The notes below the pieces were generated by a model that was not told the DNA's origin, did not search any database, and saw only the letters and a program-made list of their open reading frames with translations. A program made the translations under genes and the position numbers. Below, piece by piece: positions 204 to 5,959 of a stretch of 26,371 bases of DNA (positions are counted from its first letter, which is position 1; each line of letters opens with the position of its first letter). The stretch lies in NCBI GenBank assembly GCA_009787075.1, contig WRGS01000231.1, positions 1 to 26,371 on the forward strand, read 5' to 3'. This DNA comes from Paludibacter sp. GTDB lineage: Bacteria > Bacteroidota > Bacteroidia > Bacteroidales > Paludibacteraceae.

Positions 204-2792
204 TTAAAGTTTAAATTCCATTGGAATAGAGATTTTTACATTAAAACTCCGCCCCATATTGTAAATTCCATCAACTTTATAGCGCGACAAATGGTCGTAA
301 TAGGTTTCGTTTAACAGATTGTTTGCAGCGAGATTCAAGAGTATTTTTTGATATTTTATTCCGAATTCAAAAGCAAATCCTGCGTTTAACAAATTGTAAT
401 CGGGCGTTTTGGTTTCATTTTCGGCAACTTTGTTCTGTGTAAACGAATATTGATTTTGCAGATAAATTGAAAACTTTTTCACTGCTTTTTTTAATGAAAA
501 ATTTGCCTCTATCTTTGCATTTATTTTTTGAGAAGGCATTAAAGCCAAATAATTGTGATTAACATTCTGCCCAAATGTGCCACTGTACGAACTTTCGATA
601 TGCATCCAGTCCAATGGGTGTGGATGCAAATGAAAACCCGCCTCGCCGCCGTATAAAAAAGCATCGTTTTGCGTGTAATTGAAAACAGGAATATTGTTTA
701 TTGCATTGTCGGCGGGTTGCAAACAGATGTAATTGCGGATATAATTGAAATAAGGATTTATAAAAAATTCAATATGCTTGATGCTGTAATTCAGCGAAGC
801 GTCTATTTGATAACTGTTTTCGGTTTTCAAATCAGGGTTGCCTATTTCGTAACGGTTAGTTCCTTCGTGCACGCCGTCGCTTAACAATTCAAACATATTC
901 GGTGCGCGAAAACCGGAAGACAAATTTAACCGAAACGACAAACCTTCCACAATGGGTTGATATATTCCTGTGGAAAAATTAAAGGAATAATATTGTTTGT
1001 CAAATGCTTCAGAAGTAATATATCGAGTATCAAAACGCAAACCAGCCTGCCAGTACGCTTTTTGAGAATAATAAAAATCGGTCATAGCAAAAACGCCGAC
1101 ATCATAAGTATTGGCATCTGGAATAAGAATTTCCTCGCCGTGATTGGTGTTGCTCTGCGCCATTGCCTGACTGCCTGCGGTAATCGCCAAATGCTCATTC
1201 CATCGCTGCGAATACCATTTGGCATTGTAAGAAAAAGTGTGCAAATTCATATTCAGTGCGGCTTCTCTGTCTTCTTCAAATTCTTTCCTGTTATTGAAAA
1301 CATATCCCAAATCAACTTTCAATTTAGCCCCATTATTAAAGAAAAAAGTATTTTCGGAACTGACTAAATGCGTTGTCAAATTCTGATAAGGCAAAAGCGG
1401 TTTTCGCCCGTTTTTGTAAATTTCTTCTTCTTCCAGTTCCTCTTCTTCGGCTTCGGTCAAACCAAATTTTTCATTTAAAAAACTGTATTTCAATGCAGTA
1501 GTAAATTTGTTTCCTGTATATCCAAAAGTGGTTTTCAAATTTCCTGTATTAAATCGGCTATTGGGAACAAAATTATTATTGCCGTCTTTATAATCTTTGT
1601 GCGTGGTATATCCGCCGAACAAATTCCAGTGCAGACGGTTTTTCGACAGTTTGAACGCGCTGTTGTTTCTAAAACCAAGCGTATTGCCTGTAAATTCCGA
1701 ATTAACAGCGGCTTCAATGCTGTTGTTTTTTGCATAGCGTTCATCTACAAAATACAGCACACCGCCCAAAGCATCGCTTCCATAAAGCAAGGAAGCAGGA
1801 CCTTTGATAATTTCTACCTGCTCGTAGCCGTTTTCGTCAAGTCCAAGTCCGTGTTCGTCGCCCCACTGCTGATTTTCAATTCGTATCCCTTGCGAAAAAA
1901 CGGCAATTCTATTGCCGCTCAATCCGCGAATAACGGGTTTGCCGATGCCTGCGCCCGTACTCAAATTGTCAATTCCTGCTATGGAAGTCAGTTTGTCGGC
2001 AAGCGAAATGCCCTGTACGCTTTCGTCTTTTATACTCAATTTTTCTACGCTAATCACATTTTCGCCCTGCAAACGCGAAGTATTTTCAATAACTACAATT
2101 TCCTGCAATTCGTGCGAAGAAGGCTGCAAATAGATAATTTGTCCGTTTTCACTCAAATTAATTCGATTGAGATAAGTTTGATATCCGATAGCGGAAATTT
2201 GCACCAAAATCTGCGGCATAGTAAAATTTACCTGAAATTGTCCCTGTGCATCGGTAATTGTCCCTGTTTTTGTTTCGGGATAATATACATTGGCAAATTC
2301 AACAGGCGCATTATTTTCTTTATCCAAAATCTTGATTTGCGTTTGAGCAAAACACATTATTTGTCCTGCAAAAATCAGTAAAAACAAACAAACGGTTTTC
2401 AAAAATCCGCTGCATTGACGGCAATATCCTGTAATATACGAAGATGTAGAAACAGCGGTATATCCCTGCGGAAGTTCTTGTTGAGTAACAGATTTTTCGA
2501 TGCAAGTAATAGTGTCGCAGGCGATGCAATAAAAATGCGGGTGATTATCGTGATGATTGCCTGCCGTGCAATTATGATGACACAAAGCATAGCAGGTTTT
2601 TCCGTCATTGTTTATTATTTTATGCACTTTTCCATCATCGCAAAAACTCTGTAAAATGCGGTAAATTGTAACTCTGTCAATTTTTTCGGACAAACGTTTG
2701 CCAATTTCTTCGTGGCAAAGAGCCGAATTTGAATTTTCTAAAATGCTGAATACCAACTGTTTTGTCTTTGTGTTTCTTCTTAACTTGTCCAT
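204..2792 (-). CDS. Fur/Zur-family transcriptional repressor fused in frame to a TonB-dependent outer-membrane receptor (862 aa from the MDKLRR start)
   Basis: Residues 1-129: winged-helix DRVTIYR motif, HHDNHPHF metal site and two CxxC motifs (CIAC, CRQC) typical of Fur. Then a hydrophobic signal-peptide-like segment (LKTVCLFLLIFAGQIMCFA-Q), a CarboxypepD_reg-like domain, a plug (GKPVIRGLSGNR...GPASLLYGSDALGGV) and a beta-barrel (NPDLKTE, GRSFNVKI). ATG at 2792 is preferred over the track start at 2888 because a promoter lies at 2819-2850. Confidence 0.9.
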   Translation of the reverse strand: MDKLRRNTKTKQLVFSILENSNSALCHEEIGKRLSEKIDRVTIYRILQSFCDDGKVHKIINNDGKTCYALCHHNCTAGNHHDNHPHFYCIACDTITCIEKSVTQQELPQGYTAVSTSSYITGYCRQCSGFLKTVCLFLLIFAGQIMCFAQTQIKILDKENNAPVEFANVYYPETKTGTITDAQGQFQVNFTMPQILVQISAIGYQTYLNRINLSENGQIIYLQPSSHELQEIVVIENTSRLQGENVISVEKLSIKDESVQGISLADKLTSIAGIDNLSTGAGIGKPVIRGLSGNRIAVFSQGIRIENQQWGDEHGLGLDENGYEQVEIIKGPASLLYGSDALGGVLYFVDERYAKNNSIEAAVNSEFTGNTLGFRNNSAFKLSKNRLHWNLFGGYTTHKDYKDGNNNFVPNSRFNTGNLKTTFGYTGNKFTTALKYSFLNEKFGLTEAEEEELEEEEIYKNGRKPLLPYQNLTTHLVSSENTFFFNNGAKLKVDLGYVFNNRKEFEEDREAALNMNLHTFSYNAKWYSQRWNEHLAITAGSQAMAQSNTNHGEEILIPDANTYDVGVFAMTDFYYSQKAYWQAGLRFDTRYITSEAFDKQYYSFNFSTGIYQPIVEGLSFRLNLSSGFRAPNMFELLSDGVHEGTNRYEIGNPDLKTENSYQIDASLNYSIKHIEFFINPYFNYIRNYICLQPADNAINNIPVFNYTQNDAFLYGGEAGFHLHPHPLDWMHIESSYSGTFGQNVNHNYLALMPSQKINAKIEANFSLKKAVKKFSIYLQNQYSFTQNKVAENETKTPDYNLLNAGFAFEFGIKYQKILLNLAANNLLNETYYDHLSRYKVDGIYNMGRSFNVKISIPMEFKL

Positions 2793-2810
2793 AAAAATGA
2801 TTATTAAAAT

Positions 2811-2863
2811 TAATGCCACAAAGTTACGATAATATTTTTTAATAATGCAACAATGTGGCGATA
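2811..2863. repeat. Two 21-bp direct repeats (17/21 identical, 32-bp period); candidate Fur/Zur operator boxes
   Basis: TAATGCCACAAAGTTACGATA (2811-2831) and TAATGCAACAATGTGGCGATA (2843-2863); each contains a degenerate GCAAC-N3-GTTGC palindrome. Confidence 0.65.
2819..2850 (-). promoter_or_regulatory. Bacteroidetes sigma-A promoter of the Fur-TBDR gene
   Basis: Minus-strand TAACTTTG (-7 consensus TAnnTTTG) at 2819-2826 and TTG (-33) at 2848-2850, 21-bp spacer. Confidence 0.7.
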
Positions 2864-2911
2864 AAAACTGCACAAAAATAAACAGCAAGTTATTTAAGCA
2901 GTTTCAATAAC

Positions 2912-2989: not shown

Positions 2990-3508
2990 TTATTTAACTT
3001 TCAAATTATCAATTCCTTTGTTAATTGCATCTTTTGCCTTGTCTTTTGCGTCCTGTGCGGCTTGAGCAGCGTTGTCTTTTGTCGTTTGAGCGGCATTTGA
3101 AACACTTTCTTTCACATCTTCAACCTTTTGAACGGCAGCGTCTTTTACATTGGTACCAGCATCGACAGCCGAATTTGCAGTATTTTTCACAGTTTCAACT
3201 ACGCCCGAAGCCGTGCTTTTTACTGCGTCCCACGCTGTTTGCGCTTCTTTAACTGCTTTTTCAGCTGCAGCCTGAGCCGCTTTATCGCCTTTTGCTTTCG
3301 CATCTGTAAGAGCCTGTTTTGCAGCGGCAAGTTTTGCTTCTGTTGATTGTAATGCCGCATCTGCTGCATTTTCAAGATTCTTTCCCAAAGTATCAACAGA
3401 CGAAACGATAGTGTCCTGCGGTACAGTTTCTTGTGCCGCTTTTTTTACGCAAGAAGTCGCTAAAAGCGCACCTGCAACAATACTAAAAATAAAAATTGTC
3501 TTTTTCAT
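2990..3508 (-). CDS. Ala/Lys-rich low-complexity lipoprotein with 11-mer amphipathic repeats (LEA/apolipoprotein-like)
   Basis: Signal peptide II ending LLATS-C20; C-terminal half has 11-residue periodicity. Confidence 0.8.
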   Translation of the reverse strand: MKKTIFIFSIVAGALLATSCVKKAAQETVPQDTIVSSVDTLGKNLENAADAALQSTEAKLAAAKQALTDAKAKGDKAAQAAAEKAVKEAQTAWDAVKSTASGVVETVKNTANSAVDAGTNVKDAAVQKVEDVKESVSNAAQTTKDNAAQAAQDAKDKAKDAINKGIDNLKVK

Positions 3509-3603: not shown

Positions 3604-3658
3604 TTGCATAAAATTTGTGTGGAAGTTACAAATGGTTTGTAATTATAACATATTAATA

Positions 3659-5959
3659 ATGAGAAAATTAATTATAACATTATTCGTTTTTATCTGCGCT
3701 GTTCCGCTTTTGGCGCAGCAAAAAGTGGGGCTTGTTTTCAGCGGCGGCGGCGCAAAGGGAATGGTGCATATCGGTGTGATTAAAGCCTTAGAAGAGAATA
3801 ATATACCGATTGATTACGTTGCAGGAACATCTATGGGCGCAATTGTGGCGAGTTTGTACGCCATAGGAATGACGCCTGACGAAATGATAACTCTCTTAAA
3901 ATCAGATTCTTTTCGCCGATGGTCGAAAGGGATTCTGACTGAAAAAGAAAAATATTTTTATTTCAATACCGATTCGCGCCCTTCGTTTATTGATATTCCG
4001 TTTCGATTCAATATAAAAAGTTTGGATTCACTTAATATTCAGGCAGAAATCCCTACGCATATTGTTTCGTCAAAGCAAATGAATCTCGCTTTTTTGGAAC
4101 TTTTCTCTCAGGCATCAACTGTTGCAGGCGGCAATTTCGACCGACTTTTTGTACCATTCCGCTGCCTTGCCTCTGATGTTTATGCCAAAAAATCGGTTGT
4201 GCTTTCATGCGGAAATCTGGGTGATGCGGTACGGACTTCAATGAGTATTCCGCTGGTTTATAAGCCTATAGAGATTGACAGCCTTTTGCTTTTCGACGGC
4301 GGACTGTACAATAATTTTCCTGTCGATGTGATGGAAAAAGATTTTTCGCCCGATTATATTATTGGTTGCGATGTTTATAAAGAACTTGAAAAACCCAAAC
4401 TCAATGATGTTGTTTCTCAAATGACAAATATGCTGATGAATGTTAAACGTTACCGTTTGACAAAAACAGAAGGATTGATTATGCGTTTTGATACAAGAAA
4501 ATACAATATGCTTGATTTTTCAAAAGTTGATGATTTGGTAAAAATGGGTTATGATTCAACTATGGTTTATATTGCAAAAATAAAATCGCAAATAAAATCC
4601 AGACGCGACAGCGCAGAACTTGCGCAGCAGCGGTCTGCTTTTAAAGCGAAATTTCCAAAACTCGAATTTCAAAATATTGAAATCAGCGGAGCAAATAAGA
4701 ATCAGCAAAAATACATAAAACGCTTTTTGCAGCACAATAACGAAGTTTTCAGTATTGAAGATTTTCGTAAAAAATATTTTATGCTGCTTTCGGATGGCAG
4801 GATAAAAGAAATTATTCCACGCGCACGGTTTAACAGCGAAAATGGAAATTTTGATTTGCTGCTAAAAGTTGATGTGCAAGCGCCTATGGTGGCGCATGTT
4901 GGCGGCAACGTGTCGTCTTCCACTTCCAACGAAGCATATTTTGGCGTTTCGTTCCAGCATTTGAGCAATTACGCTTTTACAGCGACAACAGACGCTGAAT
5001 TTGGCAAATTTTACAATTTTTTGGGCTTAAGCGGACGAATTGATATTCCTGCACGCACGCCGTTTTATGTGAAAATGTCGGGCGTTTTACATCGTTTTTC
5101 TTTTTTTGAAAAAAGTAAATGGTTCTATGAAGATAATACAACTTTCGATTTCGACCAAAATGAAATTTTTACAAAACTCAGCGCAGGCATACCTGTGGCA
5201 ATGCGCGGGCGGCTCGAAGGCGGAATTGGATACGGAACGCTAAAAGACCATTATCGGCTGAACAAGTTAATTTCTGCAAGCGAAAAACATTATGATGAGA
5301 GCCTCTACAATCTTGCCACAGTATATTTACGCTACGAAAATTATACTATCGACAATATTTCATTTCCAATTTCGGGCTATCTTTACGATGTTTCGGCGCA
5401 AGTTCTTACAGGAAATTTGTATTTTACTCCTTCAACAAACGCTCAAACCGACCGCACGCGAGTAAGATGGTTGCAGTTGCACGCAAAATACGACAAATAT
5501 ATCACCATTTCAAAACGCTTTATATTAGGAACTTACGGCGAAACGGTATTATCAACGAGAAAATTTTCGAGTAATTACAACGCAACTCTCGTTCAAGCGT
5601 CTGCCTTTGCGCCGACAACGCACAGTAAAACAGTATTCAACAGCGCATTACGCGCAAATATGTTTGCCGCAACAGGCTTAAAACCGATTATCAAATTCAA
5701 CGACCAACTTTATTTGCGCAATGAATTCTATTGGTTTGTGCCGCTGCGAAAAATCGGATTCACAGAAGACGGACAACAGGCGGAATACAAGCCGTTTTCG
5801 TTGAAAAATTCGGAATATTTGGCAGAAAGTTCGTTTGTTTTGTATATGCAGCGGTTTTCGGTTGCACTGTTTGTAAATAAATACAGCCACGCGGCAAGTG
5901 ATTGGAACATAGGACTTAATCTCGGTTTTTTAATTTTTAACGATAAATTTATTTACTAA
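3659..5959 (+). CDS. Patatin-like phospholipase with POTRA-like segment and C-terminal beta-barrel (PlpD / type Vd-like)
   Basis: Signal peptide MRKLIITLFVFICAVPLLA-Q; oxyanion motif GGGAKG; nucleophile GTSMG; catalytic DGG; beta-strand-rich C-terminus. ATG 3659 is preferred over GTG 3617. Confidence 0.9.
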   Translation: MRKLIITLFVFICAVPLLAQQKVGLVFSGGGAKGMVHIGVIKALEENNIPIDYVAGTSMGAIVASLYAIGMTPDEMITLLKSDSFRRWSKGILTEKEKYFYFNTDSRPSFIDIPFRFNIKSLDSLNIQAEIPTHIVSSKQMNLAFLELFSQASTVAGGNFDRLFVPFRCLASDVYAKKSVVLSCGNLGDAVRTSMSIPLVYKPIEIDSLLLFDGGLYNNFPVDVMEKDFSPDYIIGCDVYKELEKPKLNDVVSQMTNMLMNVKRYRLTKTEGLIMRFDTRKYNMLDFSKVDDLVKMGYDSTMVYIAKIKSQIKSRRDSAELAQQRSAFKAKFPKLEFQNIEISGANKNQQKYIKRFLQHNNEVFSIEDFRKKYFMLLSDGRIKEIIPRARFNSENGNFDLLLKVDVQAPMVAHVGGNVSSSTSNEAYFGVSFQHLSNYAFTATTDAEFGKFYNFLGLSGRIDIPARTPFYVKMSGVLHRFSFFEKSKWFYEDNTTFDFDQNEIFTKLSAGIPVAMRGRLEGGIGYGTLKDHYRLNKLISASEKHYDESLYNLATVYLRYENYTIDNISFPISGYLYDVSAQVLTGNLYFTPSTNAQTDRTRVRWLQLHAKYDKYITISKRFILGTYGETVLSTRKFSSNYNATLVQASAFAPTTHSKTVFNSALRANMFAATGLKPIIKFNDQLYLRNEFYWFVPLRKIGFTEDGQQAEYKPFSLKNSEYLAESSFVLYMQRFSVALFVNKYSHAASDWNIGLNLGFLIFNDKFIY

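Follow-up and report, generated by a model that had tools for sequence, protein, structure and literature searches.

A Fur-family regulator and a TonB-dependent receptor encoded in one reading frame in Bacteroidales

Regulators and outer-membrane proteins are textbook products of separate genes, since their compartments differ. Can a DNA-binding metal regulator and an outer-membrane transporter nevertheless be made as one chain? The question is raised by a gene of a Paludibacter sp. (assembly GCA_009787075.1, contig WRGS01000231.1), of which we analyzed a stretch of 26,371 nucleotides, here referred to as the window. On its minus strand one open reading frame (ORF) encodes a Zur-like domain of the Fur family, an internal signal peptide and a complete TonB-dependent receptor. 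Below we describe this gene and its relatives, and weigh how a chain of this kind would be made and divided.

One frame for regulator, signal peptide and receptor

The minus-strand frame is open over 204..2888, and translation from the ATG at 2792 gives 862 residues before the stop. All four domains scored above their Pfam gathering thresholds, namely FUR (residues 6-101), CarbopepD_reg_2, Plug and the TonB_dep_Rec barrel. The order from the N- to the C-terminus is Zur-like Fur domain, Sec signal peptide, SusC-type NTE domain, TonB box, plug and barrel (Table 1). The source is a metagenome-assembled genome (MAG) with a completeness of 73%. Window positions 2250-2900 were identical and gap-free in two independent Logan assemblies of runs from the source sample, a termite-gut metagenome, with word depths of about 95 and 26. 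Since both assemblies come from the same sample, this rules out a slip of binning or assembly and leaves room for strain-level variation.

A search with residues 1-260 retrieved 66 protein clusters, and in 50 of these Fur and receptor were present in one ORF (40-78% identity). The assemblies carrying the fused clusters are labelled Prevotellaceae, Tannerellaceae, Dysgonomonadaceae, Candidatus Symbiothrix and Bacteroidales, and are termite or cockroach gut symbionts. The fused gene was also present in Viscerimonas tarda, a cultured termite-gut isolate. In public annotation these genes are simply named 'TonB-dependent receptor'. The single-ORF architecture is real; chance or error is excluded by the 50 of 66 related clusters, which come from many independent assemblies. 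These results bear out an earlier note on this DNA, which had read one stop-free ORF with a Fur domain, an HHDNHPH motif, two CxxC pairs and a full receptor, had correctly placed the TTG at 2402 and the end of the signal peptide at 2346, and had proposed both the read check across the junction and the search for the architecture in other Bacteroidales.

The match of the regulator to PF01475 was low in score (28.6 bits against a cut-off of 23.1; 32.6 bits in a six-frame search of the genome). In an AlphaFold2 model of residues 1-250 the per-residue confidence (pLDDT) was 83-88 over the winged helix-turn-helix and 65-72 over the dimerisation domain. The top Foldseek matches of this model were Zur, Fur and PerR, all with a probability of 1.00, and the first four were Zur structures. 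By sequence, the nearest solved regulators were Zur of Streptomyces coelicolor (3mwm) and FurB/Zur of Mycobacterium tuberculosis (2o03). H57, C75, H80, D82, H84 and H86 were invariant in 40 fused relatives. The same holds for C89/C92 and C124/C127, the two CxxC pairs, so that the four cysteines of the Zn(Cys)4 structural site of the Fur family are present throughout.

A typical n-h-c signal peptide lies within five residues after the second CxxC pair, with K132, a hydrophobic h-region and CFA|Q. At the protein level the junction reads GYCRQC-SGF-L(TTG 2402)-KTVCLFLLIFAGQIMCFA|QTQ, and at the DNA level GGA TAT TGC CGT CAA TGC AGC GGA TTT TTG AAA ACC GTT TGT. The h-region and FA|Q were kept in all fused relatives, with Q150 invariant and A149 nearly so, which agrees with the Sec-type segment and AxA-like cleavage named in the earlier note. 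The relatives also retained K/R in the n-region and an h-region of 10-19 residues. The linker between CxxC and h-region varied in sequence and length and was never interrupted. Signal peptidase I sites of Bacteroidetes reportedly follow a Q-rule, to which the predicted FA|Q site conforms. In the AlphaFold2 model a single continuous helix (residues 125-147) runs through the signal peptide. TonB-dependent receptors are recognized by a cleavable signal peptide at the N-terminus, whereas here it is found at residues 130-149; it would be N-terminal only in a product begun at TTG 2402.

A Dysgonomonadaceae/Symbiothrix subclade (P0052, P0053, P0055, P0061; L028, L031, L033, L034, L181-L183) lacks the NTE domain and has a shortened linker, the h-region beginning 0-2 residues past CxxC. 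Ahead of the h-region, positive charges are confined to the Fur CxxC and the residues right after it. It looks as if the C-terminus of the regulator has been turned into the n-region of the signal peptide.

In the receptor part, the NTE domain was modelled as a confident beta-sandwich (pLDDT > 90) and matched the SusC NTE domains 9hfj and 6ytc in Foldseek. For ELQEIVVI the name TonB box presumably applies, going by the known consensus. Plug and beta-barrel, the two domains that define TonB-dependent receptors, are both present. The nearest solved chain was ZnuD (4rdr, E = 3e-26), and the best NCBIfam match was also ZnuD (NF038289, 1.9e-42), with 145.8 bits against a cut-off of 950. Judged by these scores the receptor is ZnuD-like and not a ZnuD equivalog.

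Table 1. Location of the features of the fused gene and its promoter in the window, and extent of the Fur deletions found in relatives
Feature	Position	Strand	Residues	Remarks
Fused gene	204-2792	(-)		One frame without stop, 862 codons; ATG 2790-2792, stop codon 204-206
Zur-like Fur-family domain	2406..2792	(-)	1-129	Winged-helix DNA-binding and dimerisation domains; assigned from Pfam FUR, nearest structures, invariant columns and dN/dS
Internal Sec-type signal peptide	2346..2405	(-)	130-149	SGFLKTVCLFLLIFAGQIMCFA; conserved h-region and FA|Q
In-frame TTG	2400-2402	(-)		Inside the signal-peptide segment
Predicted signal peptidase I site	2346-2348 / 2343-2345	(-)	A149 / Q150	FA|Q motif
NTE (CarboxypepD_reg-like) periplasmic domain, SusC-type	2091..2333	(-)	154-234	PF13715
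TonB-box-like motif	2088..2111	(-)	228-235	ELQEIVVI; columns L229, Q230 and E231 conserved
Plug domain	1758..2036	(-)	253-345	PF07715, E = 1.3e-15
Barrel, C-terminal part	207..1328	(-)	Pfam match 489-826; through last residue 862	22-strand TonB-dependent receptor; PF00593, E = 1.1e-23
Operator box 1 (predicted)	2811..2832	(-)		ATCGTAAC-TTT-GTGGCATTA; encloses the -7 element
Bacteroidetes -7 promoter element	2819-2826	(-)		TAACTTTG; inside box 1
Operator box 2 (predicted)	2843..2862	(-)		ATCGCCAC-ATT-GTTGCATTA; degenerate copy of the consensus; overlaps the -33 region
Fur deletion L184			4-102 deleted	
Fur deletion L205				MDKNRRN joined to GGIILK...
Fur deletion L206				First 15 Fur codons joined straight to the h-region; internal NTG-Lys gone
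Fur deletion L207			31-97 deleted	
Fur deletion L208				Two deletions, only HPHFRCI left; internal NTG-Lys gone

Selection was estimated from the pairwise ratio of nonsynonymous to synonymous changes (dN/dS, Nei-Gojobori). Values were 0.05-0.15 for the Fur domain (dS > 1) and 0.07-0.11 for plug and barrel; those of the signal peptide were looser (0.14-0.9). The Fur part is thus constrained as strongly as the barrel and is under purifying selection inside the fused frame. Lacking a stop codon of its own, the Fur domain is not a free protein as translated, and therefore every functional copy has to be synthesised at the head of a longer chain, followed by signal peptide and receptor. We regard this obligatory synthesis of a conserved regulator as the strongest single argument for the precursor being the normal functional product.

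Origin of the fusion and loss of the regulator

When barrel sequences were placed in a maximum-likelihood tree, fusion was seen throughout the clade, with Fur-less forms at scattered tips. At least 5 losses of Fur are required by the well-supported branches. Among the best 150 relatives of the Fur domain in a library of 1.8 billion proteins, all those outside the clade were stand-alone proteins of 120-190 residues; the fused clade is represented in this library mostly by fragments, with one long member, so that fusions elsewhere are not countable in it. Chitinophagaceae and Flavobacterium frequently have stand-alone regulator orthologues, with about 40% identity. At three loci (L036, L039 and L194) a stand-alone regulator of the same subfamily stands beside a different receptor.

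An unfused operon was found in the Dysgonomonadaceae MAG Cc175_bin72 (here named L035). Its regulator ends with ...GYCPNCLTC-TAA, 3 residues past the last CxxC. The receptor has an ATG of its own, 14 nt past this TAA, as well as its own signal peptide with a longer n-region (MKKLSEIKKQG...). Both proteins are orthologous to the parts of the fused chain (59% identity for the regulator, 65% for the receptor), and promoter and operators are the same. This argues that the fusion was derived from a fur-receptor operon which would have lost its first stop codon near the base of the receptor clade. Taken with the tree, the fusion is old and conserved.

Five relatives carry independent deletions of the Fur core, with different breakpoints, yet promoter and Fur ATG were kept in each (Table 1). 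All five deletions are in frame with the signal peptide, which would be expected with a probability of ~(1/3)^5, or ~0.004, if the frame were indifferent. Two of them, L206 and L208, have also lost the internal NTG-Lys, and therefore the Fur ATG is the only sensible start there.

Some loci showed further rearrangements. In L023 (2400-2818) the signal peptide behind the regulator is broken off halfway by stop codons (…MKTVLLFVLVFAGQNDF), and a different receptor gene comes next; this resembles a secondary break-up of the fusion via rearrangement. Behind the NTE domain the fused gene of L041 (2540-3000) gives way to unrelated sequence, which may be an insertion; this gene resembles a dead copy. 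Directly downstream of the Fur-less receptor of L209 (2948-3629) there is a cation-diffusion-facilitator gene (Cation_efflux and ZT_dimer). In the Chitinophagaceae loci L043, L066 and L076 (~3750-5000) the stand-alone regulator orthologue follows a conserved gene pair, with no receptor nearby. Of the two membrane proteins encoded by this pair, one is small and divergent, has about 130 residues and carries a Cys/His motif; the other has about 210 residues.

Promoter, operators and the candidate metal

About 28 upstream regions were aligned, anchored on the -7 box. They share, in register, a 19-bp palindrome over the -33 region (ATTGCAAC-nnT-GTTGCAAT). A second copy surrounds the -7 box, the box centres being about 32 bp apart, and the ATG follows 22-37 nt further on. 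Box 1 was kept in register in the fused loci and also in the unfused L035, L039 and L194. The half-sites form TTGCAA-N5-TTGCAA, a 6-5-6 pattern, which has been reported in the same form for the boxes of Nur, the nickel regulator of Streptomyces (PMC2691836).

In each of 22 fused genes the 150 nt before the junction were free of the -7 motif TAnnTTTG. No internal promoter was thus indicated, and therefore one transcript would serve regulator and receptor. The two conserved predicted operators appear to cover the only promoter, and the regulator is probably a palindrome-binding autorepressor at its own promoter. Promoter, operators, regulator and receptor all lie within 2.7 kb. Since the flanking genes differ from locus to locus, this is a self-contained monocistronic module. 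For the same reason the gene neighbourhood was dismissed as uninformative about the metal. Upstream of the module the window encodes a predicted lipoprotein of 172 residues, rich in Ala and Lys and with weak apolipoprotein-like repeats (2990-3508, minus strand), and a protein of 757-780 residues with an N-terminal patatin domain (3617-5959, plus strand). Neither of them is kept beside the fused gene in relatives.

Further operators were sought with up to 2 mismatches in the genome itself, which gave 24 matches against 7 in the control, and only one site was persuasive. This best extra match (TTGCAACTTGGTTGCAC, one mismatch; G000 contig C228:10448-10464, corresponding to L191:249-265) lies upstream of L191:339-2222 and overlies the -33 region of a gene for a ZntA/CadA-type heavy-metal P1B ATPase of 628 residues (TIGR01525, 3e-163). 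The regulon may have this ATPase gene as its second member. When five other carrier genomes were searched with up to 1 mismatch, the matches were mostly intragenic or the module's own boxes.

The sensing-site (M-site) ligands of S. coelicolor Zur, which we take to be D65, C79, H85 and H87, were compared with the fused regulator by a phmmer alignment to 3mwm. C75 corresponds to C79, H86 to H87 and H80/H81 to H84/H85, but H57 takes the place of D65. All residues aligned to the sensing site except H81 are invariant in the clade, which is compatible with Zur. Because the nearest regulators are Zur, the nearest receptor is ZnuD and the extra operator stands at a ZntA/CadA-type ATPase gene, we would name zinc as the metal, on balance and with some reserve. 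The Nur-type pattern of the operators weakens this assignment. Nickel or cobalt seems improbable, and iron or haem a little more so.

Processing of the precursor and comparison with known systems

Our best explanation, which we hold to be probable, is a fused uptake module that represses itself and whose precursor would be cut by signal peptidase I, the regulator stub being at first tethered and then released. Transcription would start from the single promoter, of which -33 and -7 each lie under a 6-5-6 palindromic operator. Translation from ATG 2792 would run without a stop through Zur-like domain, signal peptide and ZnuD-like receptor. The Zur-like domain would fold in the cytoplasm, while the internal signal peptide would enter SecYEG with its N-terminus in and its C-terminus out, co-translationally or driven by SecA, and the receptor would be translocated. 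Signal peptidase I would then cut at FA149|Q150. The receptor released in this way, probably with an N-terminal pyroglutamate, would travel to the outer membrane. At first a stub of 149 residues, regulator plus signal peptide, would remain on the inner membrane, and it would probably be freed in an RsiV-like manner by an RseP-type protease that clears the signal peptide. An M50/RseP homologue is encoded in the genome. The metal-loaded regulator dimer would finally bind both operators and turn the gene off. TTG 2402 probably also yields some receptor-only product in this window.

The earlier note had proposed a real fusion, split by signal peptidase I and regulating itself. The fusion stands; for split and self-regulation the support is comparative. 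A stronger version is a selected device, in which the repressor is freed only after the receptor has been threaded through SecYEG and cut, so that repression would be coupled to export one-to-one and in time. We consider this version possible and rather doubtful.

To judge where the receptor starts, 25 fused junctions were read at the DNA level. No canonical start (ATG, GTG or TTG) precedes the h-region in 6 of them: the codon is ATC in L024, ATA in L041 and CTG in L002 and L003, and none was found in L028 and L182. Of these, L024 stands for a well-supported subclade in which the old start position encodes Ile or Val. In these six lineages, therefore, the receptor should be obtainable only from the precursor.

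Several observations weigh against the precursor as the source of most receptor, or against its processing and self-control as outlined above. An ATG, GTG or TTG lies within a few codons before the h-region in the other 19 of the 25 junctions. Where Leu occupies the old start position its codon is always TTG or CTG; these two make up 56% of the Leu codons of the same genes and the sequences are not independent, so that the signal is modest and suggestive. In L210, which has lost Fur entirely, the receptor must begin at TTG-AAA. Internal initiation at TTG 2402 is therefore credible here and may supply much of the receptor. The in-frame deletions carry a risk of ascertainment, since out-of-frame Fur remnants would be called as shorter genes; three relatives called short were inspected, and they had lost the entire promoter region and showed no out-of-frame relics. 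Furthermore, the assembly, which is 73% complete, yielded no SppA, and in a search of sequencing runs the locus was present in no RNA run. Finally, a genome with a fused gene (G041, locus L021) also carries a stand-alone paralogue of 130 residues with a perfect operator (TTGCAAC-GCT-GTTGCAA) and a different receptor (L194:1500-3015). This soluble paralogue could act in trans on the operators of the fused gene.

The first alternative is that of two genes in one frame, with the receptor made mainly from the internal start at TTG 2402 and led by a normal signal peptide at its N-terminus. Read-through that begins at the Fur ATG would then be a tolerated by-product of a lost stop codon and would serve only to supply the regulator, freed by the same cleavage, with no selected coupling or stoichiometry. 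It differs from our best explanation only in the source of most receptor. In its favor are the NTG kept at the old start in most junctions, the Leu codons there and the start of L210; moreover, a separate start of the ancestral receptor is evident from the unfused L035. On the other hand the six start-less junctions speak against it, and so do the five promoter-retaining Fur deletions, all in frame and two of them without an internal start. No internal promoter was found, and to our knowledge Bacteroidetes have no internal initiation driven by a Shine-Dalgarno sequence. Even so, the regulator would be made only as a precursor that needs cleavage. We consider this alternative unlikely, though one to be taken seriously. 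The second product from TTG 2402, suggested in the earlier note, is accordingly plausible with regard to the retained NTG and L210, while as the main route it is opposed by the start-less junctions.

Recoding at the junction is a much poorer candidate, and we give it little credence. Here a +1 shift on GGA-TTT-TTG-A, or transcriptional slippage in the run of five T, would bring a TGA into frame and yield a free regulator ending with ...CRQCSGF, the receptor being begun separately at the TTG. A TGA or TAA in the +1 frame is indeed present at or beside the junction in most relatives (NTGA), and the P-site codon, TTT in the window or CTT in L022, could re-pair in the +1 frame, as is known from prfB. 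The NTGA motif is explained, however, by the conserved Met/Leu/Val-Lys; out-of-frame stops are frequent in AT-rich DNA, and L024, L025, L028, L031 and L034 have no +1 stop. The preceding codons vary (TTT, CTT, GTT, CTG, CAA, CTA, TTG, TCA and others), and because there is no conserved slippery site programmed frameshifting was rejected. Five T are a short run for transcriptional slippage, and the in-frame deletions favor straight read-through. A sequencing or assembly error, or decay by a recent inactivating slip that left the Fur part as a relic, could be suspected since the genome is an incomplete MAG and one T fewer would give back the classic TTGA stop/start overlap, but it is effectively refuted by the exact agreement of the two run assemblies, by 50 divergent clusters with the same in-frame junction and different linkers, by the low dN/dS of the Fur part and by the different look of true relics such as the deletion derivatives; a recent slip in T5 lacks support, given that the ancestor of the clade already had the junction in frame.

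The precursor reading can be set against several known systems. The regulator resembles Zur and Fur (3mwm, 7vo0 and 2o03) in the two-domain fold and in the Cys4 site formed by two CxxC pairs, and Zur in the His, Asp and Cys at positions which align with its sensing site. In contrast to these it is not free in the cytoplasm, its signal peptide beginning within five residues of the last CxxC, and its Nur-box-like 6-5-6 operator is not a known Zur or Fur box. With ZnuD (4rdr) and SusC-type proteins (the NTE of BT3090 and BT1762) the receptor shares NTE domain, TonB-box-like motif, plug and barrel, but here the signal peptide is internal, behind a folded cytoplasmic domain of 129 residues. The L035 operon has orthologous regulator and receptor behind the same promoter and operators and differs in the TAA and the separate ATG of the receptor.

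ToxR and CadC are membrane-bound one-component regulators whose chain begins with a cytoplasmic winged-helix DNA-binding domain, crosses the membrane once and ends in the periplasm; the fused chain has the same predicted topology. They stay intact and sense via the periplasmic domain, whereas the periplasmic part of the fused chain has to move on to the outer membrane. The two kinds also differ in the family of the DNA-binding domain, which is OmpR-like in ToxR and CadC and Fur in the fused chain.

Anti-sigma factors share this topology too, among them RsiV of Bacillus subtilis, where signal peptidase acts as site-1 protease and RasP as site-2 protease then frees the cytoplasmic part; this site-2 protease also clears ordinary signal peptides (PMC4183432). 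Like RsiV, the fused chain has a cytoplasmic N-terminal regulatory domain, one membrane segment with a predicted signal peptidase I site on its outer face and an extracytoplasmic C-terminal part. Cleavage of RsiV depends on lysozyme as ligand and eliminates an inhibitor, whereas that of the fused chain would be constitutive. Moreover, the sequences are unrelated; the fused chain carries a complete outer-membrane transporter on the extracytoplasmic side, and its cytoplasmic part would itself be the DNA-binding repressor. Full-text literature searches turned up no account of a fusion between Fur and a receptor, nor of a Fur tethered to the membrane.

If the proposed processing is true, the Sec pathway and signal peptidase I would routinely handle large N-terminal cytoplasmic passengers, and signal-peptide processing would double as the maturation of a transcription factor. 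Operon partners could then merge into precursors that cross compartments, and the module would be a compact, portable and self-regulating uptake cassette. Should the selected device be true as well, it would amount to a bacterial 'polyprotein' that reaches from the cytoplasm to the outer membrane, and in which the clearance of a signal peptide releases a transcription factor. A large and uncharacterised Zur-like subfamily with a predicted Nur-type 6-5-6 operator is defined in Bacteroidota. In the fused genes the regulator part is hidden by the annotation as TonB-dependent receptor. With V. tarda there is a cultured carrier, which makes the model directly testable.

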